Of a stretch of DNA of 64,000 nt, positions 724-64,000 are shown one piece after another. This DNA is from Eledone cirrhosa. Its lineage: Eukaryota. The stretch covers positions 38,998,001 to 39,062,000 of the forward strand of contig OZ024741.1 of the NCBI GenBank assembly GCA_964016885.1. Direction: 5' to 3'. The translations under genes and the position numbers were made by a program. Every line of letters begins with the position of its first letter. Position 1 is the stretch's first letter. The notes beneath the pieces are model-generated. The model did no database searches, had not been told where the DNA came from, and worked only from the letters and a program-made list of their open reading frames with translations.

Positions 724-881
724 TATATCCAGGGGGTGTAACTTGGAGTTACTGCAGGTTCACCCGGGAGAGCACTCGATGTTTAGGTTCACTTCTGTGA
801 TGAGGTGTAGAGCTATACAGAGTGTAATATATTGAAAGGATAACAAGGACGATTGATTACTCCTTCATTGCATTTATTGAT

Positions 882-968
882 AGGTGACGCGCGTTTCGCC
901 ACTGATCAGCTCAAGGTTCGATCTGTATCTATCCTACCCGACTCAATAATCGGCAGCTCGACGGACCC
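882..968 (-). ncRNA. Degenerate type I hammerhead-like motif
   Basis: Minus strand: GGGT-CCGTCGA-GCTGC...GTGGC-GAAA-CGCGCG-TC-ACCT. Stems I, II and palindromic III are present, but the core deviates from CUGANGA. Confidence 0.45.
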
Positions 969-1067
969 TTTTAAAATGCTATAAGAAAATGAAATACATG
1001 CTATGTGGTAAAGTCAGAATTTCAAGGGTTTGACAAAATGAGTTGTTTTGATTGGTGGGAAGGATCA

Positions 1068-5376: not shown

Positions 5377-5597
5377 GTAATAATAATAAATTTAAAGACT
5401 AAAATCCAAAGAGGGCTCGATAAGGATAAATATATATCAAATATCTAAGAACCGTAGAGCAAATATTTATTAAAATAACAGATTAAAGTTTAACCAAAGA
5501 ATCGCTGCTTTCACCCTTAACTGGATCTTCTGAAACTTCTGTGTTTCAGAAGATCCCGTTAAGGGTGAAAGCAGCGATTCTTTGCTTAGATTTTATC

Positions 5598-5600
<3 letters not shown>
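5377..5600 (-). mobile_element. Fold-back PLE terminus, family B (palindrome plus tail; HHR-like motif in each arm)
   Basis: Inverted arms around 5537-5543. The same sequence occurs at 3110-3192, 7488-7590, 23195-23416 and 33796-34886. Confidence 0.75.
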
Positions 5601-5804: not shown

Positions 5805-6590
5805 AAAAGACCAATATCCGAAGAGGTATCGATAAATGTTACATTTTAGTCTGACATTAATTAACAGCGAAGTCGTTGAGTATTCCAGAGTTACGTATAC
5901 ACTTAAACTAATTCCTAAACCTATTCAACGTGTCACAGTATGTGACAAGATAGGCGTTGCCAAAGATACCACGTAGTAGGATGGAACAACAGAATACATG
6001 AATGCACTCAATTGATTACACGAAACGTTAAAAGACAAACAAACGTGACTAACAAATGAGAAGTGAGATTTAACTCTGCAGTTATGTAGTTATGATTCTC
6101 TGTTTTCCTACCCGTATGTAATTCAACTTACGGTAAAAGTAGGCTCAGTTGAGAAAGTATTAATCTTACACACTGACTTTGTGGAGACAAACAATCCTGG
6201 TTCGGGAATATCAGAGTATCAGAAACCGGCAATTAATACTTTCTCAACTGAGCCTACTTTTACCGTAAGTTGAATTACATAAGGGTAGGAAAACAGAGAA
6301 GCATAACTACATAACTGCAGAGTTAAATCTCACTTCTCATTTGTTAGTCACGTTTGTTTGTCTTTTAACGTTTCGTGTAATCAATTGAGTGCATTCATGT
6401 ATTCTGTTGTTCCATCCTACTACGTGGTATCTTTGGCAACGCCTATCTTGTCACATACTGTGACACGTCGAATAGGTTTAGGAATTAGTTTAAGTGTATA
6501 CGTAACTCTGGAATACTCAACGACTTCGCTGTTAATTAATGTCAGACTAAAATGTACCTTTTATCGACACCTCTTTGGATATTGGTCTTT
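5805..6590. repeat. ~365-bp inverted repeat, probable fold-back PLE terminus
   Basis: 5805-6165 is a near-perfect reverse complement of 6232-6590. It shares a CCTCTTTGGAT..T.GTCTT motif with the family B tail. Confidence 0.75.
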
Positions 6591-6847: not shown

Positions 6848-7048
6848 TGAACAAGTAAGACCCCGACGGCTGAGCTCAAGCCGTTTCGACAGCTAATTCT
6901 GGACTGAATGGAGTCCAGAATTAGCCGTCGAAACGGCTTGAGCTCAGCCGTCGGGGTCTTACTTGTTCCTATTACCCACTCTACTACCCTAAGTATTGAG
7001 TACTTTGGTGCGTTATGGTCCACCTGGTTCCTTACCACATTTCTTTCG

Positions 7049-7050
<2 letters not shown>
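6848..7050 (+). mobile_element. Fold-back PLE terminus, family A
   Basis: Same palindrome-plus-tail layout as 2805-2997, with (TA)n flanks. Confidence 0.85.
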
Positions 7051-8408: not shown

Positions 8409-11890
<3,482 letters not shown>

Positions 11891-14741: not shown

Positions 14742-14843
<102 letters not shown>

Positions 14844-14855
14844 TTAATATAGATG

Positions 14856-14906
14856 AGATTCTACAGGACTAGAACTGTTTCATTCATTAGAAATCATCAG
14901 GAATCT
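14856..14906 (-). ncRNA. Type I hammerhead ribozyme (family C, inverted copy)
   Basis: Exact reverse complement of 20766-20816. Confidence 0.85.
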
Positions 14907-15601
14907 GGGTATCAAAAAATAAATATGGTATTTATAGGTCTCTACAAGTGGTAGGAGAGGGTGGGGAGTGGGATGGGTGCAGGTCATTGGTTGATAGAAA
15001 AGGGGATTCATTAAAAGCTAATTCTACAAAGCTATAGTTTATTTTTATTTTTATTTATATTTATTTATGTTTTTAGAGTAACAAAGGCAGACAGAATTCT
15101 ATAAACAGGTTCCGGATGGCATACCATTCCTTGTCAATAAGTTTCTCTTAAGCTAACAGATGTCTATAAAATCAGTGGGGGGTCAGTCATGGTCGATAGA
15201 ATTAAAGAAAAGGGAGATTCTTTAAAAGCTAAAGTCATTAAGGTTCTACTAAGTGACAAAGGTCTAGAGAATTCTGCAGACAGATTCAAAATACTGAGTG
15301 CATATCTTACTATTATCTTCGAACTTCTCTTAAACTAATCAACTATATGCCAAAAATCAACAGACACATTCACAAAAAAACAAAAAAAACAAAAAAACAA
15401 AAAAACACACATACTCACTCACACACTTACGCGCAACCATAAACACACACACAAACACATATACACACATAAAAACACACACACATATATAAAAATATAT
15501 AAATATATATAAATATATATTCATGTACACACACATACATACACACATACATACATACATATACAATACATATACATACATATATATATATATATACATA
15601 A

Positions 15602-15730
<129 letters not shown>

Positions 15731-15879
15731 CACACAGATACACACACACATACACATACACACACACACACATATATACACAAATCAATACACTCACACG
15801 CATACATACAAACACGAGTATACATATGTATAAATATCTATACACACACACATATACACACATATATATATACATATAC

Positions 15880-15983
<104 letters not shown>

Positions 15984-16080
15984 CCATACATATACAAACA
16001 TACACGTACATACACAGACCTATACATAAATATACACATATATATACAGACATATAACGCATATATACACACACATATAC

Positions 16081-16139
<59 letters not shown>

Positions 16140-16741
16140 GATAAATCTACCAAGAGTTTACGGTAGTGTCCAATCCGTATGAAGAACTCAATGTATTCCG
16201 GATATCATGGAAAGAAGAGATGTAATGAAAAATCACTTTCGGTGAAAGATAAACGGTATACAGAGTCAAGATAAAATATTAAACAAATAATGAATAAAAC
16301 AATGAAACAGTTCCTTATATTAAACAAAAAAAGTTCATTATTTAACGATCGTTTCTAGGATATATATGTGTGTTTGCATGTTCGTAGTTATGTGTATGTT
16401 TATGCATATACGCGCGTGTGTGTGCGATTGTACTGATATGTGTGAGTATGAGAATATGTGTATACACTTATTTCATATTTATGTGTCTATACGCATCTTA
16501 TCTGTGCATTATAAACTTACAGAGACATTAACCTTGAAATTTTGTATTTGCATCCATCCTTTTGGTATGCGTATACAAGTTGAGCATACATTTTTGTAAA
16601 ATATGTGTAAGGGTAGTTACATGTATATACACACACCGAACTGCATTAAACCTTTTGTATTTTCATTGGTCAATTTTGTTCCCAAACGGACCTGAAATTT
16701 TGAATTGTTGTTATTATCAATAAATATATTTCATTATTTCT

Positions 16742-16861
16742 TTACGATCTGAGTTCAAATCCCGCCGAGGTTGACTTTGCCTTTCATCCTTACGGGGTCG
16801 ATAAAATAAAGTACCAGTAATGCACTGGGTAATTGCTGGCCTTGTGCCTAAAGTAGAAACA
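16742..16861 (+). mobile_element. SINE family 1, 5'-truncated, with 9-bp TSD
   Basis: ATTATTTCT at 16733-16741 and at 16862-16870. Confidence 0.8.
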
Positions 16862-17009
16862 ATTATTTCTGAAGACGGCGTATATATGTGTTGGTATGTA
16901 TATTTAATCTTGATAGTTTGTATAATTTTGTATAATTTTGTACATAGATCTGTTAAATATGCATGCCAATTCTAACACATATATATCCTAGAAACGATCG
17001 TTAAATAAT
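16862..17009 (+). ncRNA. Type I hammerhead ribozyme candidate with ~115-nt stem II
   Basis: ATTATTT-CTGAAGA-[TATATATGTGTT/AACACATATATA and GGTATGTATATTTAA/TTAAATATGCATGCC helices]-GAAA-CGATCG-TT-AAATAAT. Confidence 0.75.
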
Positions 17010-17066
17010 GAACTTTTTTTGTTTAATATAAGGAACTGTTTCATTGTTTTATTCATTATTTGTTTA

Positions 17067-17115
<49 letters not shown>

Positions 17116-17233
17116 ATACATATACATATACATATATATACACACACGCGCGCATACACACATACACACACCCCACACACAAAATATATATACACACTCT
17201 CTCTCTCACGCACATATATATATATATATACAC

Positions 17234-17267
<34 letters not shown>

Positions 17268-17273
17268 ATATAC

Positions 17274-17340
<67 letters not shown>

Positions 17341-17343
17341 TAT

Positions 17344-17385
<42 letters not shown>

Positions 17386-17507
17386 ACACACATACACACA
17401 TATATACATACATACACACATACACATACACAGACACATACATATACACATATATATATACTCACATATATACACACATACACACACACAAATATATATA
17501 TATATAC

Positions 17508-17556
<49 letters not shown>

Positions 17557-17563
17557 TACACAT

Positions 17564-17606
<43 letters not shown>

Positions 17607-17685
17607 TATATATATATACACACACATACATATACATACATATACACACACACACATACACACATATACATATATACATACAAAT

Positions 17686-17737
<52 letters not shown>

Positions 17738-17751
17738 CTGCCCACACAACC

Positions 17752-17821
<70 letters not shown>

Positions 17822-17839
17822 GCACACACATACATACAT

Positions 17840-17922
<83 letters not shown>

Positions 17923-17941
17923 TATACACACACACATACAT

Positions 17942-17988
<47 letters not shown>

Positions 17989-18113
17989 TACATATACACA
18001 TATATATACATATACACACACATACATACATACACACATACACATACATATACATAAACATACATACATACATACACATGCATACATACATACATACATG
18101 CACATATATACAC

Positions 18114-18176
<63 letters not shown>

Positions 18177-18267
18177 AATACACAAACATATACATACATA
18201 TACATACATAAATATACACACATAAAACACATATACACACAAACATATATATATATATACATATATA

Positions 18268-18341
<74 letters not shown>

Positions 18342-18559
18342 TACACATATACACATATACAAACAAATATATACACATACAAGTAAATAGGTACTCAATA
18401 AATATACCCATATACGCAGGCACATAAAGACACCTCTACAGGCAGAAAATGTAGATACGAAAGAGGTACTCACATAACCATAGTGGCCGTATTTCAGGTT
18501 GAGGAGGGGTGGGGGTAGGGTGGGGAGTAGGTATAGGGGCCAAAAGGGGGAGGTCGTTT

Positions 18560-19084
18560 TTAGCCATCGGGCTTTAACACTGGCTTAAAATGTTTGAATG
18601 TTGCAAGGTTCTTGTGCATGCAGTTCGGGCAGTGTTCAGAGACTTTGTTCAGTAGCGGGCCCTTGGCGAATAAAATTTCGTAGCTCTCTGAAATACAAAG
18701 GTCGCAGCCCTTGTGTCCTCCGTTGTAAGAGCGCGCTTTCTGGAGTATTTTCCAATTTAGCGTGAAGGGGGTGGAGTTCCTTTTGAGGTCCCAAACGTAG
18801 GAGGCGAGTGTTGTCTGATTTGATTTATCTGGTCTTCTGAAGGAGTGGGTATGGGCATACCAACGGGTCTTAAAGTTGTTGGAGGTCATGCCGATGTAAG
18901 TTTTTTTGCAATCCTCGGTGCCTGAGATGACATCGCATTTGTATACGATGTCATTTGTGAGGCATTTGTTTTCTAGTGGGCATGCTTCCTTATTTAGGCA
19001 ATTACATAGAGCCCCAGTCCGGGGATTGGTTTCGGAGGTGGTTGGCTTATTTAGTTTAGAGTTGTGGTTGGCTATATTCCTAGC
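18560..19084 (-). pseudogene. PLE GIY-YIG endonuclease domain (5'-truncated ORF)
   Basis: Open frame ARNIANHN...CNC...CPLENKC...IVYKC...[13 protein letters not shown]...CDLC..E...LLNK..CMH. Confidence 0.88.
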
Positions 19085-19113
19085 ACATACACATACACGT
19101 ATGTGTATGTGTA

Positions 19114-19202
<89 letters not shown>

Positions 19203-19336
19203 GTATGTATGTGTATATATATATATATATTTGTGTGTGTGTATGTGTGTATATATGTGTGTATATATATATGTGTATATGTATGTGTCTGTGTATGTGT
19301 ATGTGTGTATGTATGTATATATGTGTGTATGTGTGT

Positions 19337-19370
<34 letters not shown>

Positions 19371-19377
19371 GTGTATA

Positions 19378-19418
<41 letters not shown>

Positions 19419-19574
19419 GTATATATATATATGTATGTGTATATATATATATATATGTGTATATATATATATATATGTGCGTGAGAGAGAGAGTGTGTAT
19501 ATATATTTTGTGTGTGGGGTGTGTGTATGTGTGTATGCGCGTGTGTGTGTATATATATGTATATGTATATGTAT

Positions 19575-19654
<80 letters not shown>

Positions 19655-19751
19655 GTATATGTGTGTGTATATATGCGTTATATGTCTGTATATATATGTG
19701 TATATTTATGTATAGGTCTGTGTATGTATGTGTATGTTTGTATATGTATGG

Positions 19752-19817
<66 letters not shown>

Positions 19818-19968
19818 GTATATGTATATATATATGTGTGTATATGTGTGTGTGTATAGATATTTATACATATGTATACTCGTGTTTGTATGTATGCGTG
19901 TGAGTGTATTGATTTGTGTATATATGTGTGTGTGTGTATGTATGTGTATGTGTGTGTGTATCTGTGTG

Positions 19969-20088
<120 letters not shown>

Positions 20089-20765
20089 TGTATGTATATG
20101 TATTGTATATGTATGTATGTATGTATGTGTGTATGTATGTGTGTGTACATGAATATATATTTATATATATTTATATATTTTTATATATGTGTGTGTGTTT
20201 TTATGTGTGTATATGTGTTTGTGTGTGTGTTTATGGTTGCGCGTAAGTGTGTGAGTGAGTATGTGTGTTTTTTTGTTTTTTTGTTTTTTTGTTTTTTTGT
20301 GAATGTGTCTGTTGATTTTTGGCATATAGTTGATTAGTTTAAGAGAAGTTCGAAGATAATAGTAAGATATGCACTCAGTATTTTGAATCTGTCTGCAGAA
20401 TTCTCTAGACCTTTGTCACTTAGTAGAACCTTAATGACTTTAGCTTTTAAAGAATCTCCCTTTTCTTTAATTCTATCGACCATGACTGACCCCCCACTGA
20501 TTTTATAGACATCTGTTAGCTTAAGAGAAACTTATTGACAAGGAATGGTATGCCATCCGGAACCTGTTTATAGAATTCTGTCTGCCTTTGTTACTCTAAA
20601 AACATAAATAAATATAAATAAAAATAAAAATAAACTATAGCTTTGTAGAATTAGCTTTTAATGAATCCCCTTTTCTATCAACCAATGACCTGCACCCATC
20701 CCACTCCCCACCCTCTCCTACCACTTGTAGAGACCTATAAATACCATATTTATTTTTTGATACCC

Positions 20766-20816
20766 AGATTCCTGATGATTTCTAATGAATGAAACAGTTC
20801 TAGTCCTGTAGAATCT
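20766..20816 (+). ncRNA. Type I hammerhead ribozyme (family C)
   Basis: AGATTC-CTGATGA-TTTCTAATGAAT-GAAA-CAG TTCTAGTC CTG-TA-GAATCT. Perfect 6-bp stem I and a GUA cleavage triplet. Confidence 0.88.
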
Positions 20817-21117
20817 CATCTATATTAAAACTGTTATACTCTGCTATGTATTAAGTACCTTACTTACTGTGGTTACCTCCGATTCAACCCGGAATAACGT
20901 ATATATATATATATATTAATTTAAAATATAAAAAATAGACATTCGTGTGATCAAGTATATTTTATTATACATATTTTCAGATCACATGAACGTCTATTTT
21001 TGTTAATATTTTGAAATAATATTAATAACTCCGGAAAACCAACGCTGTGGAGTGCTTCTAATCTATTGTAAAACTTTATTCTTTGATTTATTCATTGAAC
21101 CTTGTTTAACCTTTAAA

Positions 21118-23194
<2,077 letters not shown>

Positions 23195-23198
<4 letters not shown>

Positions 23199-23737
23199 TT
23201 ATTAAAATAACTGATTAAAGTTTAAGCAAAGAATCGCTGCTTTCATCCTTAACGGGATCTTCTGAAACTAACTAGGGTTAGTTTCAGAAGATTCTTTGCT
23301 TAAACTTTAATGTTATTTTAATAAATATTTGCTCTACGGTTCTTATATATTTGATATCTATTTATCCTTATCGAGCCCTCTTTGGATTTTAGTCTTCAAA
23401 TTTATTATTATTACTATATATATATATGGTTTGTTTACTCCGGAGTAATGTAAAATAATTAAGTCAAATAGGTAAAATTTGGCTTCGTTTATTAATGAAG
23501 CCAAATTTGACCTTAATTATTTTACATTACTCCGGAGTAAACAAACCAACCTGCGTACAGTATATTTAATATAGAAATGTTTCATTTGGAAGAAATCATC
23601 AGGAAAGCCCTGATGATTTCTCGCGAATGAAACAGTTTTAGTCCTGTAGAAGCCATTTCTATATTAAATATTTATACTCTGCTATGTTATGAGTACCTTA
23701 TTTACTGTGGTTACCCCCGATCGAACCTGGGATAAAC

Positions 23738-26899: not shown

Positions 26900-29800
26900 C
26901 TTTATAAATAACAATCAAAGAGTGTTTAACAACATTTAATTACTAACGATCGTTTCATCTAAGCATAAGACCGATTTCATCGGAGTATAAATCAAAAGTT
27001 AGAACATAGATAACTTTGTTAAAGAACAGTCTGAGGATACCACATATGGGAAAAAGCGAAAATAATATATATTAACTTAGATTTAAGAGAGGAAAGCAAG
27101 AAGCACATGAAAAACATGATCATATATATATAATTAAGAATCAGCAGCTAGAGGCATTAAAAACAGGCTTATATAAAGCAAAGAAAAAGAAAAAAATCTG
27201 CTATAAGGAATTTAAGCATAAAGGAGGCATATCATGCATTGACAAATTTACGCACAATATAAGCATTACAACAATCTATAAAAGCTAGTGCATGGATCAA
27301 ATATAATCTTCAAGGTACATTTTTACTATATTTTTATAATAAAAAATTTAGCTCCATTTTTCAGTTCTAAGTATCTAGATGAACTATTATACTTCAAATG
27401 TAGTAATATCCACTGGGTGTAGTCAGCAAAATAGACATTAAATAGCTAAAATGTCGTTATTATCAAAGATGATCAAACCACTGGAGCTGATTAATATAGA
27501 GAGAATGATTAGCAAAGTAAGGTCCAATATATAATAGTTGCTATCATCTGCAAAAAGGTGCCACATATAAGAATAGGATGGAGAAAGTCATATATTAATT
27601 ATAGATGACACCATCTTAACATAAGATTTTTTAAATCTTTCAAATAACAGTTGATGGAGGAAGGGAATGAAAGGAAGATAATTCCTAAATATTTTTTAAA
27701 AGAGAGTTACATATTATTAAATGTTTATTTAGTAAGTCAACTATAACAATAACAGTAGTAAATATTAGGGCTAATGAATTATAGAACTAAGGAAATTATT
27801 TAAAAATTATTAATCTTAATTTTAGAATAATAGAATATTAAAACTAATCGAAATAACAATAAATTCGCTATGTATATTAAAATGCTGTATATTATTAACA
27901 TTATTAAAATATATCAAAGATTTAATCAAGAAAATAATTTAATTAAAAAGTTTCTATCAATAACTTTATATCAAAAGGACTTATAAAAAAATTAAAAAAC
28001 TTTCTAAAGAAACTTATTTAAAATATGAGTGGTTAAATGGAATAATAAATCACCTAAACGTTAACAGGAAAAAATGTTAATTAATAATTTAATAAATTAT
28101 GTAAAACTTAAAGGTATACTATTGGAGAGAGGCAATGACTAATGTCATGGTAAATACTAATAAAATAAAATAAGGATAAAAAATAAAAATATAAAGATAA
28201 TAATTTAAATATAATAAAATAAAATAAAATAAAATAAAATAAAATAAAGATTGCTAAATGTGATGGGGTGGTTATAATAGATTGTAATCAAAGTGGAAGT
28301 GAATAGGGATGATATAAGCATATAATGATATTAATATTACTAAAGAAATACATATACATATAAGTCTACATTGGTATAGATTGGTTACTAGGTTTAAAAT
28401 AGTTAAAAGAAAATGTTTACAAGTGGAAAAAATCTCACATTTCCTATTTAATAAATCTAATTTACAGAAGATAATAGTATGGGAGTCAAGAAGGCAAAGA
28501 TTGCAGAATTTATTGGGGGGGGGGGTCTATACGAAGCAGCTTTTGCGATCACCTTCCAGGTTAGGGTATAAAGTGTATTACTAGACTTCAGAAAAGATAC
28601 GAAATTTGATAACGAGGTTGCGTGTTTAATTAAGCCTAGAATTCTTAAAAGTATGAAGATGGGAATTATACCTCATCTTGAAACTAGTCGATGTAGAACC
28701 GATATATATTTTGAAGTTGGTAGAAGTTAGTGCAGGAATAAATAATATTTTTAACAAGGCAGTTTCCAGTAAGCGGACACACATTATTAAGCCTACAATT
28801 ACAATTATATCTATTGATTGGGCGGTTTTGAGAGTACAGGTTACAGGGTCATTGGTAATACGAGTGCTATAATTACTTTTATTATTCCTATAAGTCCTAG
28901 AAGCTACTGTATTATGAGGTTGTTTGTACAATTACTAGGCATAGCATTGCCAATCATTTCATCAGGTTGTGAATTACTATCTGAAGAGAAATATTTACTA
29001 ATTTTCTTTATTATTACTACTCGCTATATGATTAGCAATGTTAGGTGTGGTAGAATAAGAGATTTTAATGGTATTCTTATTAATGAAACTATGATACTTA
29101 TGCTCTATTGGGAACATTTTTTCCAAAATAGAGAAGAATACTCTAGGTATATTAGTAGAAACAGTTAGATTGAATGGTGGATTAAAATATGAATTAAGCC
29201 TTCTATTCTTTTTAATTTTGTTACTGATGAGTGGGTTCGTATGATTATAACAATCTCTTTTATATCTAGTATTACAGATTTTCGGTTTAGTTAATACACT
29301 ATTCGTTTTATTCATAATATTTCTCTTATTTTAAAGTTTATTTTATTACTTTTGGGAGGACCTGTAAATGGGTATATATCATCATTTAACCCACTGTTAC
29401 ACGCAATAACACTAGCATCATTATTCTGGATATTTTAATGCTTTTTATAGCAATATTATGAGAAATAATATTAGGTTATTTTTACAGTTGGTAAAGGAGT
29501 TTTTAGGCATAAACTTACTTTTATCTTTATAGTCAGAACGTGATAAAGCTTCATTATAATAATGCGCATTATGGTTAAATGCGTCTTCATTATAGGATAA
29601 ATTACTAATTCTATTTTATACACCTTTGATAATTGAGTTTAAGACAGATCTAGGGTGGTTAGAGTTGGTATCAACATAAAAAAGATTTTCATTATGTTTA
29701 TGGTAAGGTGTAAAGGTTTTAGAATTCAAGCAAAGGGTAACATCAAGGAAATTAACAGTTTGGTGTTCTAATCTAAAGTAATACTTAGGTTAACATTTTT

Positions 29801-30615
29801 GAGGAGTTTAAATAGATCCTTCATAGTTCTTTCAATTTTATATTTTTATAATCTAAAGTAAATAATGCATCGTCGCGATATAATCCACCCTTCAGGTAAG
29901 GTAAAGCCTTATACATTTCATTCGAGAGGTACAAACTGACTAAATCTGTGACCGGCACCGAATACCTAGATCCCATAGTGATATCAAAATTATCCGGTGT
30001 ATTCTTACAGGTCCATAATTGATCTTCAAATTTGATGATCGTCTTACGGGCCGCAAGAATCACATCTACCTGGGATCTAGTTAATTCGCTGTTATCCATG
30101 GCCATAATAAGAGCCTTATACAATAAGATAGGAGAGATAGATGTATAATACGAGTTAACAACATATTGAATAAACTTCTTATATATACTATATTAGAGAA
30201 CCACCCAATCAGTTCCCTAGTATTACCCAAGAGGTTGAAATGTTTTTTTACGTTTGATTTGGGGGATAATTTTGTTTAGAATCCTTTTGCTTATAAAACT
30301 ATATCAGACTTAGAAGGGCATATTAACCTAACTGTAGGATTAGTATTAAAGTCTTCCTTATGATCTTTTAATGTAAACTTGGGTGGGCTAGGGGTGTAAG
30401 GTTGAGTATACCTTTCAAGTTTTAATTTACTTACAATATTAAAGCCTTCAATATTTATGTCATCTAAATTGTTGTATGTAATTTTCTTGTAATGTTTATA
30501 CAATTCCTTCATATAGGTGTTATAATCTAGGCTATAAATATTTTTAGTTTTATCAGCTAGGACCAAGATGTTCTTATCTTTATCTAATTCACTTAATAAA
30601 TGAATTAACACTATT
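26645..30615 (-). mobile_element. Degraded near-complete PLE (RT + GIY-YIG + long AT-rich 3' region)
   Basis: Collinear peptides LADKT..., TLKDHKEDF..P.VRLICPSKSD, FDITMGS, GGLYRDDAL, YFNPPF...NTIKISYS and IYIGST.TSFK.R...H, with many frameshifts. Confidence 0.88.
26941..26987 (-). ncRNA. Minimal hammerhead candidate (C4 core variant)
   Basis: Minus strand: TACT-CCGATGA-AATC...GAT-GAAA-CGATCG-TT-AGTA, on the sense strand at the 3' end of the degraded PLE. Confidence 0.6.
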
Positions 30616-30625
30616 AATCACCAAT

Positions 30626-30841
<216 letters not shown>

Positions 30842-33705: not shown

Positions 33706-33795
33706 GTTAAAATACTGGAGCGTGTTGGAGTTAAACACCCTCTTCGTATTATAGAAATGACAGTAAAAGGTATAGCTCAATGTAGTTAAATTATG

Positions 33796-34886
33796 TATTA
33801 AAATAACAGATTAAAGTTTAAGTAAAGAATCGCTGCTTTCACCCTTAACGGGATCTTCTGAAACTTACAAAGTCAATCTGTAAACGCAGAACTGGATATT
33901 TCAAAAAACGTTGCAGCCGGAGGAAGACAGGAAGACGATACTTTGGTTCGTGGAAACGTTCGCCGGCAAAGAACGGGAAAAAACGAATAATACGTCATTA
34001 ATAGGAGCGGTGAAAAACAATTACGCGCAAAGACAGAACCACGTTTATGGTATAAAAGAAGTCGTACACTAATATTCTATTAGGTGGTGCATAGAGACGT
34101 TCTCTGGCAATGAACGAAAAAACGAAGATAATAAGTCATATGTGGAGCGTGGAGAACAATAGCACGCAAAGACAAAACCACGTAAATGGTATAGCAGAAG
34201 TTGTAGACTAAAATTCTAACTAGGAGACCAAATGAATCTCCGCTACAGAGTTAAGAACAAAGTAAATAAATACAATACAGAAGTAATAGAAACAAATAAA
34301 TACATACACGCAAACAGATACGTACATACACAAGCATACGCAAAACCTTACCATAGGTATACAAAACCACGCACATATAATATGTGTGTGTGTGTATGAG
34401 ATCCTAGTTGGTTTTGTCTTTGCATGCTATTGTTCTCCACGCTCCACATATGACTTATTATCTTCGTTTTTTCGTTCATTGCCAGAGAACGTCTCTATGC
34501 ACCACCTAAGAGAACATTAGTCTACGACCTCTTTTATACCATAAACGTGGTTCTGTCTTTGCGCGTAATTGTTTTTCACCGCTCCTATTAATGACGTATT
34601 ATTCGTTTTTTCCCGTTCTTTGCCAGCGAACGTTTCCACGAACCAAAGTATCGTCTTCCTGTCTTCCTCCGGTTGCAACGTTTTTTTAAATATCCAGTTC
34701 TGCGTTTACAGATTGACTTTGTTAGTTTCAGAAGATCCCGTTAAGGGTGAAAGCAGCGATTCTTTGCTTAAACTTTAATCTGTTATTTTAATAAATATTT
34801 GCTCTACAGTTCTTATATATTTGATATATATTTTCCTTATCGAGCCCTCTTTGGATTTTAGTCTTCAATTTTATCATTATTACTAT
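33796..34886 (+). mobile_element. Fold-back PLE terminus, family B (~385-bp arms plus tail)
   Basis: 33796-34180 is inverted to 34409-34794, with a tail to 34886. Confidence 0.8.
34708..34783 (+). ncRNA. Type I hammerhead candidate with CAGAAGA (A4) core
   Basis: ACAGATTGA-(CTTTGTT bulge)-AGTTT-CAGAAGA-TCCC GTTAA GGGT-GAAA-GCA...TGC-TT-AAACT-TTAATCTGT. Inverted copy at 33806-33881. Confidence 0.7.
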
Positions 34887-35857: not shown

Positions 35858-35862
<5 letters not shown>

Positions 35863-36057
35863 AAAAGAGTCAGAACCCCGACGGCAGAGCTCAAGCCGTT
35901 TCGACAGCAATTTCTGGACTCAGATATAGCTGTCGAAACGGCTTGAGCTCTGCCGTCGGGGTTCTGACTATTTTCCTATTACTCACTCTACTACCCAAAG
36001 TATCGAGTACTCTGGTGCGTTATGGTCCACCTGATTCCTTACCACACTTCGTTCGTT
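35858..36057 (+). mobile_element. Fold-back PLE terminus, family A subfamily
   Basis: Palindrome plus tail. Subfamily substitutions are mirrored in both arms. Confidence 0.8.
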
Positions 36058-40613: not shown

Positions 40614-40618
40614 ATTAT

Positions 40619-41147
40619 TATTATAAATGTAAGCTATCGCCGTATTTTGACTAAAGAAATTAAAGACATTATTTCGCCTGATAGTGAGGTTAAGAACCCT
40701 CGGAGAAATGGAAAAAGATGAGTATTGACGTACATGGTAGTCAATACTCATCTCTTTCCATTTCTCCGAGGGTTCTAAACCCCACTATCAGGCTAAATAC
40801 TTTCTTTAATTTCTTTAATCAAAATACGGCGATAGCTTACATTTATAATAATTTCAAACCCGCTCGCTGTTTCGAAAATATTCTTACTTGACATTACAGT
40901 CGCTAAGTTTATAGCTTCTAATTTGAATAAAAAAGGACGGGTGATGTGTTGGTGTAAATGGTAGCACAGTGGTCCGGATAACCAAAGACGTGGATTCGAC
41001 TCCCATGTACGTCAATACTAACCTTTTTCCATTTCTCCGAGTGTTCTTAACCCCACTCTCAGACTAAATAATTTCTTTAATCAAAATACGGCGATAGCTT
41101 ACATTTATAATAATTTCAAACCCGCTCGCTGTTTCGAAAATATTCTT
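40619..41147 (+). mobile_element. tRNA-containing repeat unit in inverted plus tandem arrangement
   Basis: 40619-40737 is inverted to 40740-40855, followed by about 1.4 tandem units. tRNA-like segment at 40943-41014. Confidence 0.7.
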
Positions 41148-41348
41148 ATTATATATATATATATATATTAGTTAGTATTTTTTTCACCTTAGCGAATCTG
41201 GTCCCTTACGATTTGAACACATATATGTATATCTGTATTTATCCCTCTTTTATATTCAATTATAATATACCGCTCGGAAAAATCTCTTTCATTGTAAGAG
41301 ACTATTTCATTGTAAGAGACTATTTTGAGTTTCTAACACAATATATAC

Positions 41349-41390
<42 letters not shown>

Positions 41391-41394
<4 letters not shown>

Positions 41395-41585
41395 AAAAAG
41401 TATGACCCCGACGGCAGAGCTCAAGCCGTTTCGACGGCTATTTCAGTCCAGAAATAGCCATCGAAACGGCTTGAGCTCTTCCGTCGGGGTCATACTTTTT
41501 CCTATTTCCCACTCTACTACCCTAAGTATTGAGTACTCTGGTGCGTGCGTTATGGTCCATCTGGTTCCTTACCACAATTCCTTTG

Positions 41586-41587
<2 letters not shown>
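41391..41587 (+). mobile_element. Fold-back PLE terminus, family A subfamily
   Basis: Palindrome plus tail in (TA)n. Confidence 0.8.
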
Positions 41588-42543: not shown

Positions 42544-42734
42544 ATAGGAACCAGTAAGAGCCCAACGGCTGAGCTCAAGCCGTTTCGACGGCTAATTCTC
42601 AGAATTAGCCGTCGAAACGGCTTGAGCTCAGCCGTCGGGGTCTTACTGGTTCCTATTACCCACTCTACTACCCTAAGTATTGAGTACTTTGGTGCGTTAT
42701 GGTCCACCTGGTTCCTTATCACATTTCCTTCGTT
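42544..42734 (+). mobile_element. Fold-back PLE terminus, family A
   Basis: Palindrome plus tail in (TA)n. Confidence 0.85.
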
Positions 42735-45534: not shown

Positions 45535-45536
<2 letters not shown>

Positions 45537-46349
45537 AGGTGTGTCAGAAATGTTCCAGGACTGATGTCACAAAAGATTTATTTCAAACCAAAACTTCACA
45601 CTAAGAGTTTTCTCCTTCAAAGTAATCCCTCTGGAGCCTAATGCACTTTCCATCCTTTTCTGCCACACTTGCATGTACTCCTGGAAGGATTCTTCCGGGA
45701 TCCTCCGCAGTTCCGTCGTCACGGCCTTTTTGATGTCGTCCACGTCTTCAAAACGGGTCCCCTCCGGGTCGTACTCGAAGATCCATGACTCATCACCGGT
45801 GATGACTGTCCCTAGCAAGTCTGGTTTCAAGACGCTCGAGGATGTCCTGGCACACTTGCATGCGTCGACCCTTCTGGTCATCGTTCAGCAGTTTTGGCAC
45901 CATCTTCGCGCAGACTTTCCGCATGACCAAATCCTCAGTGAGAATCTTCCAGGCACTGTCCCGTTTCATACCCAGCTCATTTGCCATCAGTCGAACAGTC
46001 AGCCGACGATTGCTACGCACCATCTGCCTGACGCGCTCAACGTTGACCTCAGTCCTGGTTGTTGAGCGCCTTCCACTCCTGGGGTCATCTTGCACCACTC
46101 AAAAACACGTGAGCGTAACATCGTCTCAACTCCATACACTTGCTGCAGCAATCCCAGTGCTTCTGATGGAGTTTTCCCCAAACGTACCAGAAACTTCAAT
46201 TATGAAGAAAAAAGTTTGATCGCTGCAGAGAGCTAAGATTACAATTACATACTCCAGGGGGATTACTTTGAAGGAGAAAACTTTCAGTGCGAAGTTTGGT
46301 TTTGAAATAAATCTTTTGTGACATTATATGGAGCTTTTCTGACACACCT

Positions 46350-46351
<2 letters not shown>
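45535..46351 (-). mobile_element. Internally deleted mariner element
   Basis: ~100-bp inverted termini beginning CGAGGTGTGTCAGAAA. Peptides KFLVRLGKT, DDPRSGR, CAKMVPKLL and ITGDESWIFEYDPE joined directly to GTRFEDVDDIK, so the catalytic core is deleted. Confidence 0.9.
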
Positions 46352-53154: not shown

Positions 53155-53908
53155 ACGATGTGTATATGAATGTATATATACTGTATTTTGCAATACACTA
53201 TGCTTAATTAAAAGCATTTTGAAGACCTTACGCTATTGTTTTAAAGTAGTGACTATTTCACTTACTTCTTTTTTCAACAAACAAAGGGAGATAAGCTGAC
53301 AGATCTCTGTTTCATACTGTTGGTATTCCTCAGAGCTTAGCATTCCCCTTGAATTATGAATGTTGGATTCTTATAGATCTCCAGTAATAATCAGGAACTG
53401 ATTATACAGAGCGGTTGCCGGTCCAGTAAAAATTTAAAATTAGAATTGGTGCTCTGAAATAGCGATGTATATATGAATGTATATATAGTGTATTTGCTTA
53501 ATTAAAAGCATTTTGAAGGCCTTATGCTATTGTTTTAAAGTAGTGACTATGTCACTTACTTCTTTTTTAAACAAGAATCTGACAGATCTCTGAAATAGCG
53601 ATATATATATGAATGTATAAATAGTTTATTTTCAATTTTTACTGGACCGGCAACCGCTCTGTTATAATCAGTTCCTGATTATTACTGGAATTCTATAAGA
53701 ATCCAACATTTATAATTTTCAACAGACGAAGGGGAGTGCTAAGCTCTGAGGAATACCAACAGTATGAAACAGAGATCTGTCAGCTTATCTCCCTTTGTTT
53801 GTTGAAAAAAGAAGTAAGTGACATAGTCACTACTTTAAAACAATAGCGTAAGGTCTTCAAAATGCTTGTAATTAAGCATAGTGTATTGCCAAATACAGTA
53901 TATATACA

Positions 53909-53915
<7 letters not shown>
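53155..53915. mobile_element. Fold-back PLE terminus (~300-bp arms, internal rearrangement)
   Basis: 53163-53432 is inverted to 53635-53915, with a partial third copy at 53466-53600. Confidence 0.75.
53732..53793 (+). ncRNA. Canonical type I hammerhead ribozyme
   Basis: GGGAG-TGC-TAAGCT-CTGAGGA-ATAC CAACA GTAT-GAAA-CAG AGAT CTG-TC-AGCTTA-T-CTCCC, with a GUC site. Inverted copy at 53286-53347. Confidence 0.9.
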
Positions 53916-55852: not shown

Positions 55853-56103
55853 GTGAAAGAGTGCAGAATAACATGGTCAACAGTACAAAAATGGTTTTAT
55901 TTACAGTATTAACAATTGTTTCATTGATTAAGTTGTCTAAAAATTGCTAATTATCCGATGATTTGATTAAGCATACATTGTATTTAAAATTGAGTGACAC
56001 AATTGATTAGCAATTTTAGACAACTTAATCAATGAAACAATTGTTAATACTGTAAATAAAACCATTTTTGTACTGTTGACCATGTTATTCTTCACTCTTT
56101 CAC
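55853..56103. repeat. Fold-back remnant related to 7605-7765
   Basis: ~100-bp inverted arms containing GAAACAATTGTT. Confidence 0.7.
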
Positions 56104-56920: not shown

Positions 56921-57339
56921 CAGTCGATCGACTTTCGTCAAATCGGACCGAGGTAACAATGTTTCCATTGGACTTTCCAATTGCTACTACTGATCGACTT
57001 TCGTCAAATCGGACCGAGGAAACAATGTTTCCATTGGACTTTCCAATTGCTACTACTGATCGACTTTCGTCAAATCGGACCGAGGAAACAATGTTTCCAT
57101 TGGACTTTCCAATTGCTACTACTGATCGACTTTCGTCAAATCGGATCGAGGAAAAAATGTTTCCATGGGTTTTTCCAATTGCTAATACTATCTACCGGTC
57201 GCAACTCCAGGTAGAAGGAGCAACATGAAATAAAGTGTCTTGCTCAAGAACATAACGCATCGACCGGTCCGGGAATCGAACTCACAACCTCACGATTGCG
57301 AATCCAGTTCTCTAACCACTCAGCCACGCGCCTTCACTC
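56921..57339 (-). mobile_element. SINE family 2 with a 3' tandem array
   Basis: Minus strand A box TGGCTGAGTGG and B box GAGTTCGATTCC. Homologous to 1591-1792. Confidence 0.8.
56926..57189. repeat. 66-bp tandem repeat, 4 copies
   Basis: GATCGACTTTCGTCAAATCGG starts at 56926, 56992, 57058 and 57124. Confidence 0.95.
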
Positions 57340-58536: not shown

Positions 58537-58643
<107 letters not shown>

Positions 58644-60030
58644 CGAAGGAAATGTGGTAAGGAACCAGGTGGACCATAACGCACCAAAGTACTCAATACT
58701 TGAGGTAGTAGAGTGGGTAATAGGAACCAGTAAGACCCCGACAGCTGAGCTCAAGCCGTTTCGACGGCTAATTCTGGACTAAATGAAAATTTATCCTGGT
58801 ATTTAAATAGCCGATCTTCTCAAGGGGTAATTCCATATATGGTCAAAGTGATTGTCAAAAATCAGTAGTAATTCTGTGGTTGCAAATTAGTAGGGGAGAT
58901 GGTGGCTAAACCTGCCAGTAGGAGAAAGAGGGGAGGGGGTGGAGTAGACCCAATCAAGCGTTGGTAGTGCCAGCTACAGCTGGGCATGAGGTCAAAGAAG
59001 ATACAGGGGAGGGGGAGGGGGAGGGGGAGGAAGTCGGAACGGTAGGTAGAACAATGGGGGGTAGAAATATAGGAAGGAAAAAATACTGAGAGTGAAGAAA
59101 AGCAAATAAGTGTAAAGAAAAAAGTAAAGTAAATTAAATTCTACGACCTAGGTGTCAGGCTATTGTTAGGCTAGAATAAAATAAATAAAGAAAGAAAGAA
59201 GTAAAGAAATAAATAAATAAAGAAATAACGAAATAAGTAAAAGAACTAGGTGGGACGAAATAGGCAAAGACCCTTTTAAGAGGTATAAGTACGTAAATGA
59301 TACGGTGACGGGTCAACAAAAGGGGCCAAAATACTAAAGAGACTACCACGAAATAAACAATAAAGGTTTCCATCCCGGGCCAGCAACGACCCAGTGCAGC
59401 AAAGTGAACTTGTACGAGATAATAATTCTGAGTCCCGAGAAAAATATATACTAATGCTAACTCTAAAAGATCTAAAACAAGCTACATGAAAGTTCGTACG
59501 AAATAAAGGTAGAATACGGAGAAATAAATTCAGAATCCACCCCGCCCAGAAGAAAAGCGAAGCAAGAAATACTGAAACGAAAAAATAAGGCATAAGTGCC
59601 ACTAAGAAATATAGAGGGCACAGAGAATAGTGGGAGCAGTCGGAAAGAGGGGGCAAGTATCCGGGGTCTAAGCCAACTGCTATAAAGGGCGGAGTCCGCC
59701 AAATCTATCATAGACTAGGGGAGGGGGTGGTGGGGGTACTAAAGCTACATGGGGCCAAAGGGCAGCCTCGGGTGGGCGAGAAAAGACGCCGACAAAGGAG
59801 AAGAGCTGGGGTAGAAGGACAGGAGCTGGGGTAGAAGGACAAAGGAGAGAGGGGGGAAGGAAATAAAGGAAGCGATAAAAGAATACAAAGAAGATCTTAC
59901 GTCTTCCTTGGCAAGCAGGGGTTACCCATTGCAAAATCGGCAAGTGGGGTGTTATAGCCCTAGTCTACCCCCCCCCCCCCCCCGGGTCATTATGGGGTTT
60001 GAGGGCGAGGTAAGTCCTACGCAATCTATG

Positions 60031-61358
60031 TTAACATGCAGTAACCAGTTCATCTTTCTTGTTTAGGAGTTGGTCCGTCGAAAACAGCATTTGTAAAGTT
60101 TCCTCCGAGCATAAATTGCACGGACGGCGTCCTCCCGTGTAAGAATTGGCTCTGGACAGTAATCTCCAAGTGAGATCATAGGTGATGTTGTTGTCCTTGA
60201 GGTCCCATATGTGGCCCGAAAGTGTAGTGGCGTGACGCCGGGCCGGGTTTCGGAAGGTATGTCTATGTTGGTATAGCCGGGTCTTGAAGTCACATGCGGT
60301 AAGTCCTATATAGGCTTTGTTGGAGGTATCCGTCCTCACGTTGCACTGGTAGATCACATTACGGTCTCTACATCTATTGTCGAGTGGGCAAATAGATCTA
60401 TCCGGGCAGTTACACCTCCTGGTCGGGTCTCCACTGCTATTTAGGTTATTTCTGACATCGGGGTTGAGTTTTTTGTTGTTAGAGGAGACGATGTTTTGTG
60501 CGAAGTTTGGTGTAGTGCTGTAAGAGAGTTTGATGGTATTTTTGTTAATTATGTTGTGGTAGCGGTGTTGTAATGGGAAGTGTTTTTCAATGAGCCTAAA
60601 GAATAGTTTCTCGATGGGAGTAGTCACCTCTGCGTTGTGGGGAGGATTGAACCATGTTACATTGCGTGAGCGGCGGTGTCTCCTGCTGGTTCCGCTAATG
60701 GGAGCTGGACAGTAGGATATTTCCTCCCGGAAACCACTCCGCTTGAGGGCCTGGTTGTAATAAGGCGCATGTTCATCGAATATCCGCTCATTAGCTGACA
60801 AACGGGATATGCGGAGGGAGATGTTTTTGACCAGGTTGTTTGTGATGTTCCTAGGATGGTTTGATCGGCGGTGGATGTAGTGCAGATTGTCATTAGGTTT
60901 CCTGTATGGGTAGTACAGGTCGTTTTCGAGGTCGAGGGTCACGTCCAGGAAGTTTGCTCGGGTCAGGGACGTTTGTAGGGTTATTTTAAATCCCCAGTCG
61001 CGGAAGAATCTGATTAATTGTTTCCGGACCCGATCTGTACTACTGGGGTTGTACCCTTTAAGGGTAAGGAGCCCATCATCACGGTACAATCCACCACCGA
61101 ATGCAGGAAACATATCAGTGAGTTTGGCTATTAGGAATAATCCTATAAGATCTGTGACCTCCGCCGAATCCGTGGCGCCCATGCTGACGTCGAAGGGTGA
61201 GTCGGGAGCTCTTTTTATCCATCTATAGTCGTCAAAGAGTAAGACTGTCTTCCTGGCGTGGAGAATGATTTTTCTTTCCTGGTCGGTGATGGGCACAAGT
61301 GTTTCGGCGAAGTCCAAGGCGGCAGTAAGTAGCGGTAAGGTGATTGAAGCATAGTAGC
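60031..61358 (-). pseudogene. PLE RT (from motif A onward) + GIY-YIG endonuclease
   Basis: SYYASI, FDVSMGATDSAEV, GLYRDDGL, NFLDVTL, SNHP, WFNPP, CNC..CPL..C..NVIY..YIGLT..FKTR..H, CNLC..E..LLNK. Premature TAA at 60031-60033 (AAA in the other arm). Confidence 0.93.
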
Positions 61359-62574
61359 TGAACTGGTTACTGCATGTAAACATAGATTGCGTAGGACTTA
61401 CCTCGCCCTCAAACCCCATAATGACCCGGGGGGGGGGGGGGGGTAGACTAGGGCTATAACACCCCACTTGCCGATTTTGCAATGGGTAACCCCTGCTTGC
61501 CAAGGAAGACGTAAGATCTTTGTATTCTTTTATCGCTTCCTTTATTTCCTTCCCCCCTCTCTCCTTTGTCCTTCTACCCCAGCTCCTGTCCTTCTCTACC
61601 CCAGCTCTTCTCCTTTGTCGGCGTCTTTTCTCGCCCACCCGAGGCTGCCCTTTGGCCCCATGTAGCTTTAGTACCCCCACCACCCCCTCCCCTAGTCTAT
61701 GATAGATTTGGCGGACTCCGCCCTTTATAGCAGTTGGCTTAGACCCCGGATACTTGCCCCCTCTTTCCGACTGCTCCCACTATTCTCTGTGCCCTCTATA
61801 TTTCTTAGTGGCACTTATGCCTTATTTTTTCGTTTCAGTATTTCTTGCTTCGCTTTTCTTCTGGGCGGGGTGGATTCTGAATTTATTTCTCCGTATTCTA
61901 CCTTTATTTCGTACGAACTTTCATGTAGCTTGTTTTAGATCTTTTAGAGTTAGCATTAGTATATATTTTTCTCGGGACTCAGAATTATTATCTCGTACAA
62001 GTTCACTTTGCTGCACTGGGTCGTTGCTGGCCCGGGATGGAAACCTTTATTGTTTATTTCGTGGTAGTCTCTTTAGTATTTTGGCCCCTTTTGTTGACCC
62101 GTCACCGTATCATTTACGTACTTATACCTCTTAAAAGGGTCTTTGCCTATTTCGTCCCACCTAGTTCTTTTACTTATTTCGTTATTTCTTTATTTATTTA
62201 TTTCTTTACTTCTTTCTTTCTTTATTTATTTTATTCTAGCCTAACAATAGCCTGACACCTAGGTCGTAGAATTTAATTTACTTTACTTTTTTCTTTACAC
62301 TTATTTGCTTTTCTTCACTCTCAGTATTTTTTCCTTCCTATATTTCTACCCCCCATTGTTCTACCTACCGTTCCGACTTCCTCCCCCTCCCCCCCCCCTC
62401 CCCTGTATCTTCTTTGACCTCATGCCCAGCTGTAGCTGGCACTACCAACGCTTGATTGGGTCTACTCCACCCCCTCCCCTTTTTCTCCTACTGGCAGGTT
62501 TAGCCACCATCTCCCCTACTAATTTGCAACCACAGAATTACTACTGATTTTTGACAATCACTTTGACCATATAT

Positions 62575-62684
62575 GGAATTACCCCTTGAGAAGATCGGCT
62601 ATTTAAATACCAGGATAAATTTTCATTTAGTCCAGAATTAGCCGTCGAAACGGCTTGAGCTCAGCTGTCGGGGTCTTACTGGTT

Positions 62685-62686
<2 letters not shown>
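62575..62686 (+). ncRNA. Type I hammerhead with U3:A8 core (family A)
   Basis: ACCCC-TTGAGAA-GA(T)CGGCTA...TAGCCGTC-GAAA-CGGCT..AGCTG-TC-GGGGT, with a distal GGAA/TTCC extension. The sense-strand copy is at 58723-58834 (-). Confidence 0.78.
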
Positions 62687-63112: not shown

Positions 63113-64000
63113 GTATAGAGAGAGAGGAACAGGAATTAGAAAGTGAGGGGACAAACGGAATAGTATAGAGAGAGAGGGAGGGGGAGAAGAGTTAGGAAGT
63201 AGAGTGACAAACTGAGATGGATGGGAGGGGTAGAGGTGGAAGGATTCCTTGATCAGTTTTGATACGTAGACTTCATGTCGTCGATTGTAGTGAGTTAAAT
63301 ACACCCTGAAGTGGAAAAAATTATCGAACGCGTCCCAATATCGGAGTGACATGAGAAACTGTCGATTATGTGAGCTGTTCCACATTTTGAGTGCGAAGAA
63401 TAAGTTACTCAACAATAAAATCGAAAGATCAATTTATTGTAACCATAGACTCAAAGAAAAGTTTTCGCACTACAAGTGCAAATCGAACCCTTAATCTCTT
63501 ACTACCAACTGACAAACTGCATATACTTAGACTTTATACCCTCTTATTATATCTAACCCCTTTAATTACCCACAAAAACCAATACCTATATCCCTCCCTT
63601 CTCCTTCATTCCTCTTCTATTTCTTTTTGTTTTCTTCCTTTCTTCCCTCCCCTTTTTGGCTATCTTTTCTTTTCTTCTTTCTCCCCTTTCTTTATTTTTA
63701 TCATTATTATTTTTATCTTTATTATTTTTTATATATATATTTATCTCTTTATATCTCCCCCCCCTCTCTCTCTCTCTCTCTCCATCCCTCCCACTATGAT
63801 CAATTTAATTCTATTTAACTCACTACAATCGACGACATGAAGTCTACGTATCAAAACTGATCAAGGAATCATTCCACCTCTACCCCTTCCTCCATCTCAG
63901 TTTGTTACTCTACTTCCTAACTCTTCTTCCCCTTCCTCTCTCTCTATACTATTCCGTTTTCGCCCTCACTTTCTAATTCCTGTTCCTCTCTCTCTATACT
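63113..64000. repeat. Inverted arms of another fold-back element, running off the window
   Basis: 63113-63297 is inverted to 63815-64000. Confidence 0.75.

Follow-up and report, generated by a model that had tools for sequence, protein, structure and literature searches.

Two loci with a circularly permuted, tRNA-containing unit

The window analyzed here, a 64,000-nt stretch of the Eledone cirrhosa genome to which all coordinates refer, consists of AT-rich, microsatellite-dense DNA whose repeat types agree with those listed for Octopus vulgaris (PMC13282606). Two loci in the window carry a 272-bp unit composed, in order, of a tail, a leader, a 72-nt tRNA cloverleaf, a run of five T residues (T5), and a trailer: copy A at 1068 to 1375 and copy B at 40617 to 41148. 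Searches by BLAST, masked self-BLAST, nhmmer, and an 18-nt word from the tail recovered just these two loci. The four strong nhmmer matches all fall inside them (next best, E = 1.5), and the tail word has four matches against 0.02 expected, a number that none of 100 shuffles attained. Masked self-BLAST aligns copy A with 40856 to 41148 of copy B at 90.1% identity across 303 nt, which bears out the initial annotation, where a unit of ~270 bp with an internal tRNA-like gene and a T run had been placed at two loci. The unit has a GC content of 36%, its tandem extent at these loci is at most ~1.5 units, and its longest ATG-initiated open reading frames (ORFs) span 52 to 65 amino acids. Upon inspection of the sequence, neither poly-A nor a target site duplication (TSD) is discernible at either copy, so the earlier report that poly-A, TSD, and ORF are all absent holds.

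Copy A lies on the plus strand and has the 36-nt tail also at its 5′ end (1068 to 1103), as an exact 36/36 repeat of the 3′ tail (1340 to 1375) that adjoins (TA)n. Between the two lie a leader (1104 to 1154, of which 1104 to 1140 is invariant between copies, with a TATA-like AT-rich stretch that is visible by eye ~30 to 36 nt upstream of the tRNA), the cloverleaf (1155 to 1226), and a trailer (1227 to 1339) that is variable at 1227 to 1302, invariant at 1303 to 1339, and includes the T5 run (1237 to 1241), which resembles an RNA polymerase III (Pol III) terminator. Copy B begins with an inverted, 5′-truncated arm on the minus strand (40617 to 40737), which extends from the T-arm of the tRNA up to the tail without including it, and terminates on (TAT)n/(TA)n. 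On the plus strand there follow a 5′-truncated upstream repeat equivalent to a pseudo-LTR (40740 to 40891, with an interrupted T run and including a tail at 40856 to 40891), a leader (40892 to 40942), a cloverleaf (40943 to 41014) identical to that of copy A at 70 of 72 positions, a T5 run (41024 to 41028), and a trailer with a 9-nt deletion plus the 3′ tail (together 41015 to 41148, the tail being 41118 to 41148), after which (TA)n begins.

Both copies are terminally redundant, by exactly 36 nt in copy A and by ~150 nt in copy B (41011 to 41148 being repeated by 40740 to 40891), and the left repeat of copy B continues into the sequence that opens copy A; that is, the copies are circularly permuted. 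The inverted arm forms a 236-nt palindrome of 91.5% identity (BLAST), over which Rfam microRNA and snoRNA matches were dismissed as artifacts of the inversion. Permutation, redundancy, and inversion had each been recognized in the initial annotation and are confirmed here. Its placement of the ends at (TA)n also stands, all three cassette 3′ ends lying on (TA)n or (TAT)n/(TA)n, but the coordinates need adjustment: the 3′ end of copy A lies 5 nt beyond that of copy B, and copy B begins ~2 nt farther to the left. The repeat period is 272 bp in copy A and 262 bp in copy B, and the tail runs straight into the leader; an ORF therefore cannot fit, which makes the element nonautonomous.

Variation among the partial copies

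Comparison of the four partial copies at the two loci reveals an uneven distribution of differences. The trailer at 1227 to 1302 contains 16 substitutions and two indels, almost all of them confined to a single copy, whereas the next ~110 columns (the 3′ trailer, the tail, and the first 37 nt of the leader) contain a single adjacent 2-nt difference. That difference sits in the tail, such that tails are identical within a locus and differ between loci. A quiet stretch of this length arose in 97 of 20,000 simulations with random placement and, for the segment at 1223 to 1370 with 19 hand-listed events, in 101 of 50,000 runs (p of about 0.002 to 0.005, in tests that treat events as independent and whose statistic was chosen post hoc). 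Since decay after insertion would be even, the likelier reading is that selection acted on the ~110-nt block around the tail in the source copies. Within copy B, the three segments differ from each other by 6 to 8% (92 to 94% identity in the trailer), versus 1326 of 1329 identical positions in the arms of a young insertion described below; this pattern suggests that separate units or RNA molecules gave rise to them. Heterogeneity among unit RNAs has been reported for the retrozymes of mussels (PMC7229834).

Neither the ~110-nt block nor the circle folds into a significantly stable RNA, and nothing but the tRNA itself is significant; a candidate pairing between leader and trailer around the tRNA was dropped, being equaled in 264 and 950 of 1,000 shuffles. 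A bacterial, phage, or plasmid origin was likewise rejected: the unit yields chance matches only (E ≥ 0.09), and two patterns have no exact match in genome contigs. The initial annotation had reported no convincing hammerhead, and our scans agree: Rfam finds none in the unit at the gathering cutoff or at E ≤ 5, a structured scan across the entire window places none of its eight sites there, and a relaxed core scan of the unit returns a single core, unstructured and with 1 mismatch, on the minus strand of copy A.

Insertion geometry and Penelope-like elements in the window

Penelope-like elements (PLEs) insert as partial tandems with an inverted, 5′-truncated copy at the 5′ end and with a tail of 30 to 40 bp, often at one end only (PMC8557442), and they prefer (TA)n, including the Naiad and Hydra families of Octopus (supplement of PMC8557442). 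In vitro, the tail represents the stretch between two internal start sites of the reverse transcriptase (RT), and hammerhead cleavage is dispensable (PMC11167929). The origin of tandem, inverted, and tailed insertions is called a still open question (PMC8557442).

Copy B has this published layout of a partial tandem, an inverted 5′-truncated copy, and a one-sided tail. In copy A, the pseudo-LTR-type tandem corresponds to the 36-nt repeat, and the arm is a candidate one of heterologous sequence. The cassette tail measures 31 to 39 nt and is absent from the inverted arm, which fits the published one-end tail; 35 nt separate the arm-equivalent end from (TA)n. Moreover, the 5′ end of copy A falls within ~4 nt of the tail start that is set independently by the inverted arm of copy B.

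Controls for this geometry exist within the window. A PLE on the minus strand (58643 to 62686) encodes RT motifs and, after them, a cysteine motif and a GIY-YIG-type domain; Pfam assigns no family to its protein (60034 to 61770), whose domains were read from motifs and homologs, and the four of its 89 homologs that bear species names all belong to Argonauta or Octopus (33 to 40% identity). This insertion is young and 5′-truncated, with 1.33-kb inverted arms that are identical at 1326 of 1329 positions and an 80-nt one-sided tail. By eye it resembles Hydra-1_Obim; scans detect no canonical hammerhead at its end, and hammerheads are called universal in Hydra PLEs (PMC8557442). Five very short, inverted-arm stubs of the same element sit in (TA)n (2807 to 2996, 6850 to 7049, 35861 to 36056, 41393 to 41586, and 42547 to 42733), and all six inverted-arm copies show an 80- to 84-nt extension on one side with the other end flush on (TA)n. 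The chance of an end abutting (TA)n is about 0.03 each. Ordinary SINEs in the window also end at (TA)n or AT-rich runs, so (TA)n ends by themselves are not diagnostic of a PLE.

Several other repeats accompany these elements. At least six further inverted-arm families occur at (TA)n (53169 to 53910, 21274 to 23133, 14841 to 20899, 5377 to 5600, 23198 to 23414, 33781 to 34883, 5806 to 6590, and 55853 to 56103), and structured type I hammerheads are found among them at 53746/53333 and 22869/21425. Decayed PLE ORF regions were located by tblastn at 18575 to 19096, 28386 to 30632, and 63300 to 63473. A LINE with an RT domain (PF00078; 8798 to 11626), which we take to be Dong/R4-like, lies directly behind (TAA)n and is split by one stop at 10751 to 10753. 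Ordinary tRNA-SINE heads are present at 1592 to 1758 and 57168 to 57338, and an abundant SINE-like 3′ segment is represented at 123 to 310 and by about a dozen related copies. Transposase remnants, presumably mariner-like, occupy 45535 to 46351 between ~100-bp inverted repeats with (TA)n flanks.

None of the ten PLE-like ends in the window resembles the cassette end: among 20 comparisons, none was significant, the best being equaled by 23 of 300 shuffles. The ~110-nt block scores at best 32 against the masked window (shuffles, 30 to 40), and the four PLE ORF regions located in the window with tblastn show no resemblance to the unit. For nonautonomous Chlamys elements, shared 3′ ends with autonomous families are the usual condition (PMC8557442). 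Longer copies of the unit linked to a PLE ORF, for which the initial annotation had suggested searching, are absent from the window; at both loci, another tail lies upstream of the leader.

The left neighbor of copy A (here called W; 729 to 1067, minus strand) is probably the 3′ end of another PLE and forms the candidate heterologous arm, head to head with copy A. W spans from (TA)n to the cassette, and its junction with copy A contains no (TA)n. A minimal hammerhead-like motif on its minus strand (909 to 886) lies 157 nt from the (TA)n end; the pattern matches nowhere else in the window (expected, 0.06; at least one match in 6 of 100 shuffles), and the motif scores 16.6 bits (E = 1.2) against Rfam Hammerhead_1, under the cutoff of 34. 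There is also an 11/12 match to the start of the cassette tail 16 nt from the junction, of modest, scoring-dependent significance (15 to 160 of 2,000 shuffles; 13 of 1,539 genomic 60-mers). That W is an inverted arm copied from the RNA of another PLE during insertion of copy A, forming a chimera, we regard as evenly balanced between true and false; a deletion between two neighboring insertions would be expected to look the same. If true, the chimera would link the cassette with the PLE machinery. The idea that W is a diverged relative of the entire unit was rejected (not significant; 77 to 210 of 500 shuffles).

Taken over these two loci, the geometry, the PLE controls within the window, and the published tail signature (PMC8557442, PMC11167929) give good support to the initial proposal of a nonautonomous element mobilized by PLE proteins and not by a LINE. 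The 272-bp element is quite likely nonautonomous, ORF-less, and copied in trans by a (TA)n-targeting PLE.

The tRNA-like gene and the form of the template

The tRNA-like gene has a cloverleaf, promoter boxes, and a terminator. Rfam (RF00005) scores the cloverleaf at 42.4 bits in copy A and 36.4 bits in copy B, both above the cutoff of 29; ARAGORN calls copy A as Ser(gga) and misses copy B. The A and B boxes are intact in copy A, and copy B has one B-box change. The T5 run (starting at 1237 and 41024) is the only run of four or more T residues on the plus strand of either copy and is located 10 nt past the tRNA, ahead of the tail. In functional tRNAs the anticodon loop has U33 and a purine at position 37, and tRNA-Ser does not normally have a 4-nt variable loop. 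Here, the loop is noncanonical (C33, U37), the Ser anticodon GGA is combined with a short 4-nt variable loop in the Rfam alignment, and the acceptor stem contains three G-U pairs; from these features, a working role in translation appears unlikely. The D-arm, judged by eye, presumably resembles that of tRNA-Gln. A self-complementary hexamer spans the anticodon loop (1185 to 1190 and 40973 to 40978), and it could permit loop-loop dimers or be due to chance.

With T5 between the tRNA and the tail, and with 87 nt of tail plus leader upstream of the tRNA promoter, a monomeric Pol III transcript cannot yield the observed copies. A plain Pol III transcript would be ~85 nt long, the tail lies ~100 nt farther on, and the leader is outside as well; only a multimer or a circle can therefore have served as the template, whether through tandem read-through, as a Pol II multimer, or as a circular RNA. 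The earlier designation as a Pol III element thus survives with respect to the A and B boxes, but not as a monomeric Pol III template. Because neither locus contains two tRNAs, a master copy giving rise to read-through must be elsewhere. Both truncation points of copy B (40736 to 40742) fall within the T-arm and acceptor stem of the tRNA, near A58, which is what stalling of RT on a folded or modified tRNA would produce, albeit in a single event.

Proposed mechanism and alternative explanations

Very probably, a PLE protein would bind the conserved ~110-nt block, nick (TA)n, and start reverse transcription internally at two sites 31 to 39 nt apart, the far site giving the main copy with its tail and the near site giving the inverted arm without it. 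Diverged tandem units would likely supply the template as a multimer or circle, with more than one RNA molecule usable per insertion. As to how such RNA could be made, we tentatively favor, among the three template variants, Pol III transcription from the tRNA of one unit with occasional read-through of T5 into the next, a step that we hold short of probable. Transcription from one unit into the next has precedents in SM-alpha (PMC6765202) and Cassandra (PMC10886601), and a tandem layout would give back the upstream flank that ordinary SINEs lose.

Two variants of this reading keep PLE-mediated copying and assign the tRNA another part. In one, which is possible if unlikely, the tRNA fold would act not as a promoter but as a signal for cutting: host RNase P/Z, or cleavage in the anticodon loop followed by RtcB ligation, would reduce a multimeric read-through transcript to RNA of unit length, linear or circular, the tRNA doing the job of the hammerhead in retrozymes. 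The whole cloverleaf is indeed kept, including acceptor stem and discriminator (70/72), beyond what A and B boxes need; the unit lacks a hammerhead; its size is within the 170- to 400-nt range of RtcB-closed retrozyme circles (PMC7229834); and both copy B truncations fall in the last 15 nt of the tRNA, as if the template folded as a tRNA. However, cuts at both tRNA ends would remove the tRNA from the template, the circular fold does not stand out from shuffles (8 and 52 of 100 fold equally well), and the truncations amount to one event. In the other, decidedly unlikely, the tRNA gene is cargo without a part in mobility, a stand-alone Pol III gene (upstream flank, boxes, and terminator) that was captured with a PLE recognition signal, rides Pol II read-through RNA, and makes its own ~85-nt RNA. 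A terminator shortly behind the acceptor stem is typical of tRNA genes and not of SINEs, and the 10-nt spacing here has the tRNA gene layout. PLEs can also retrotranspose host genes in trans (PMC8557442). Cargo sits poorly with C33, U37, Ser(GGA) on a 4-nt variable loop, and three acceptor G-U pairs, and no benefit of carrying the gene is apparent.

The remaining alternatives dispense with a nonautonomous PLE passenger. It is improbable that each copy is simply the 3′ terminus (pseudo-LTR) of a longer autonomous PLE in which a tRNA-like sequence happens to lie: most short inserts with PLE geometry in the window are such stubs (five of the PLE at 58643 to 62686), but another tail lies upstream of the leader at both loci with a period of 272/262 bp, such that the circle closes without an ORF twice independently, and none of the four PLE ORF regions or ten PLE-like ends is similar. 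This case, which the initial annotation had named as fatal to its proposal, is thus not borne out. A tRNA tandem array had been named in the same way and fares differently: a diverged array is the likeliest source of the template and is compatible with the PLE reading, while dispersal of array fragments by DNA-level events stays a rival, albeit a highly improbable one. Head-to-tail units differing by 6 to 8% within one locus would suit such fragments, yet both 3′ ends fall at most 5 nt apart, three ends abut (TA)n at a chance of ~0.03 each, and the inversion is without exactly the tail. Very remote is the case of a common tRNA-SINE that a LINE (RTE or Dong/R4) mobilized, the inversion being due to twin priming and the local duplication to chance. 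The unit is short and tRNA-derived with a microsatellite end, as are the SINEs of the window, and an RT-encoding LINE is at hand (8798 to 11626); against this, the tRNA is internal, with 87 nt before it and a terminator straight after, both copies show terminal redundancy, the inversion has duplicated sequence instead of rearranging it, and BLAST finds no similarity to LINE or SINE ends of the window.

Relationship to known elements

Judged from its sequence, the 272-bp unit works like a nonautonomous PLE or retrozyme, with five geometric and coding features of these elements. Animal non-LTR retrozymes, which have been proposed to be nonautonomous PLE derivatives (PMC7229834; bioRxiv 10.64898/2026.07.22.740005), are likewise low-GC, ORF-less, heterogeneous tandem units of 170 to 400 nt (PMC7229834), but their defining feature is a type I hammerhead in every unit, which the 272-bp unit lacks; in the accessible text of the preprint (10.64898/2026.07.22.740005), a word search gives no occurrence of "tRNA" or "polymerase III." Schistosoma SM-alpha/Sj-alpha also consists of short, ORF-less tandem units (335 bp in SM-alpha; PMC8490949) with an internal Pol III promoter, and its upstream unit transcribes the next one (PMC6765202). 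SM-alpha differs by an active type I hammerhead, in place of which the 272-bp unit has a full cloverleaf with T5 behind it, and PLE tails or inverted arms do not appear in the accessible parts of its descriptions (PMC6765202, PMC8490949). Nonautonomous Chlamys elements (MRC1) and short nonautonomous Penelope elements of butterflies share the lack of an ORF, the pseudo-LTRs, and the head-to-tail arrangement (PMC8557442, PMC6685494), whereas a tRNA gene goes unmentioned in what is accessible of their descriptions, and the usual shared autonomous 3′ end is not found here.

Among elements of other classes, TRIMp3 (Helenus, Ajax, and Cassandra) is alike in having a Pol III promoter that stems from a gene for a small RNA, in being nonautonomous and LINE-independent, and, for Cassandra, in transcription from one repeat into the next; it is unlike in its true LTRs, PBS, PPT, 4- to 5-bp TSDs, and dependence on LTR retrotransposons (PMC10886601). 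At the two loci, by comparison, repeat lengths are unequal, an inverted arm is present, a TSD is absent, and neither PBS nor PPT is seen by eye; a word search of the TRIMp3 paper (PMC10886601) for "Penelope" gives no match. SINE2 elements, including the window family at 1592 to 1758 and 57168 to 57338, have tRNA-derived A and B boxes, short lengths, and microsatellite ends in common with the unit. The window SINE2 family, however, has its head at the 5′ end, no terminator behind it, no tRNA call, and no terminal redundancy, and the 87 nt upstream and T5 10 nt downstream of the tRNA in the unit do not conform to a 5′ head with an element-spanning transcript. Comparisons within the window show no LINE-derived 3′ tail, poly-A, or TSD in the cassette. 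The unit is therefore outside retrozymes and SM-alpha (no hammerhead), SINE2 (internal tRNA, terminator, and redundancy), and TRIMp3.

Among accessible full texts, we found no description of a tRNA-gene-bearing, PLE-dependent element, and words from the cassette have no exact match in the supplements of PMC8557442, PMC8967140, and PMC4758252 (four of five files; FASTA line breaks may hide matches). The family may already be in Repbase, Dfam, or the O. vulgaris library under a SINE or unknown label. In the annotation of such genomes, copies would come out as tRNA-Ser genes or unclassified SINEs, and the O. vulgaris library counts 893 unclassified SINE families among recently active insertions (PMC13282606).

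The most far-reaching reading, which is speculative and unlikely, is that of a ribozyme-free retrozyme: a PLE parasite with a full tRNA mimic in the hammerhead's place that would recruit Pol III and tRNA-processing enzymes for unit-length or circular RNA, with the PLE RT jumping between RNAs, including, at locus A, a hammerhead-bearing PLE RNA. As for the passenger that we prefer, its ~110-nt conserved block and two mapped end points would make the 272-nt natural substrate a minimal template on which the cis signal, internal initiation, and template jumping could be examined. SINEs accompany LINEs, and TRIMp3 accompanies LTR elements; SM-alpha hints at a counterpart among PLE passengers yet has a hammerhead. 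If the present reading is true, a PLE passenger bearing a tRNA gene would be the counterpart for the third class.
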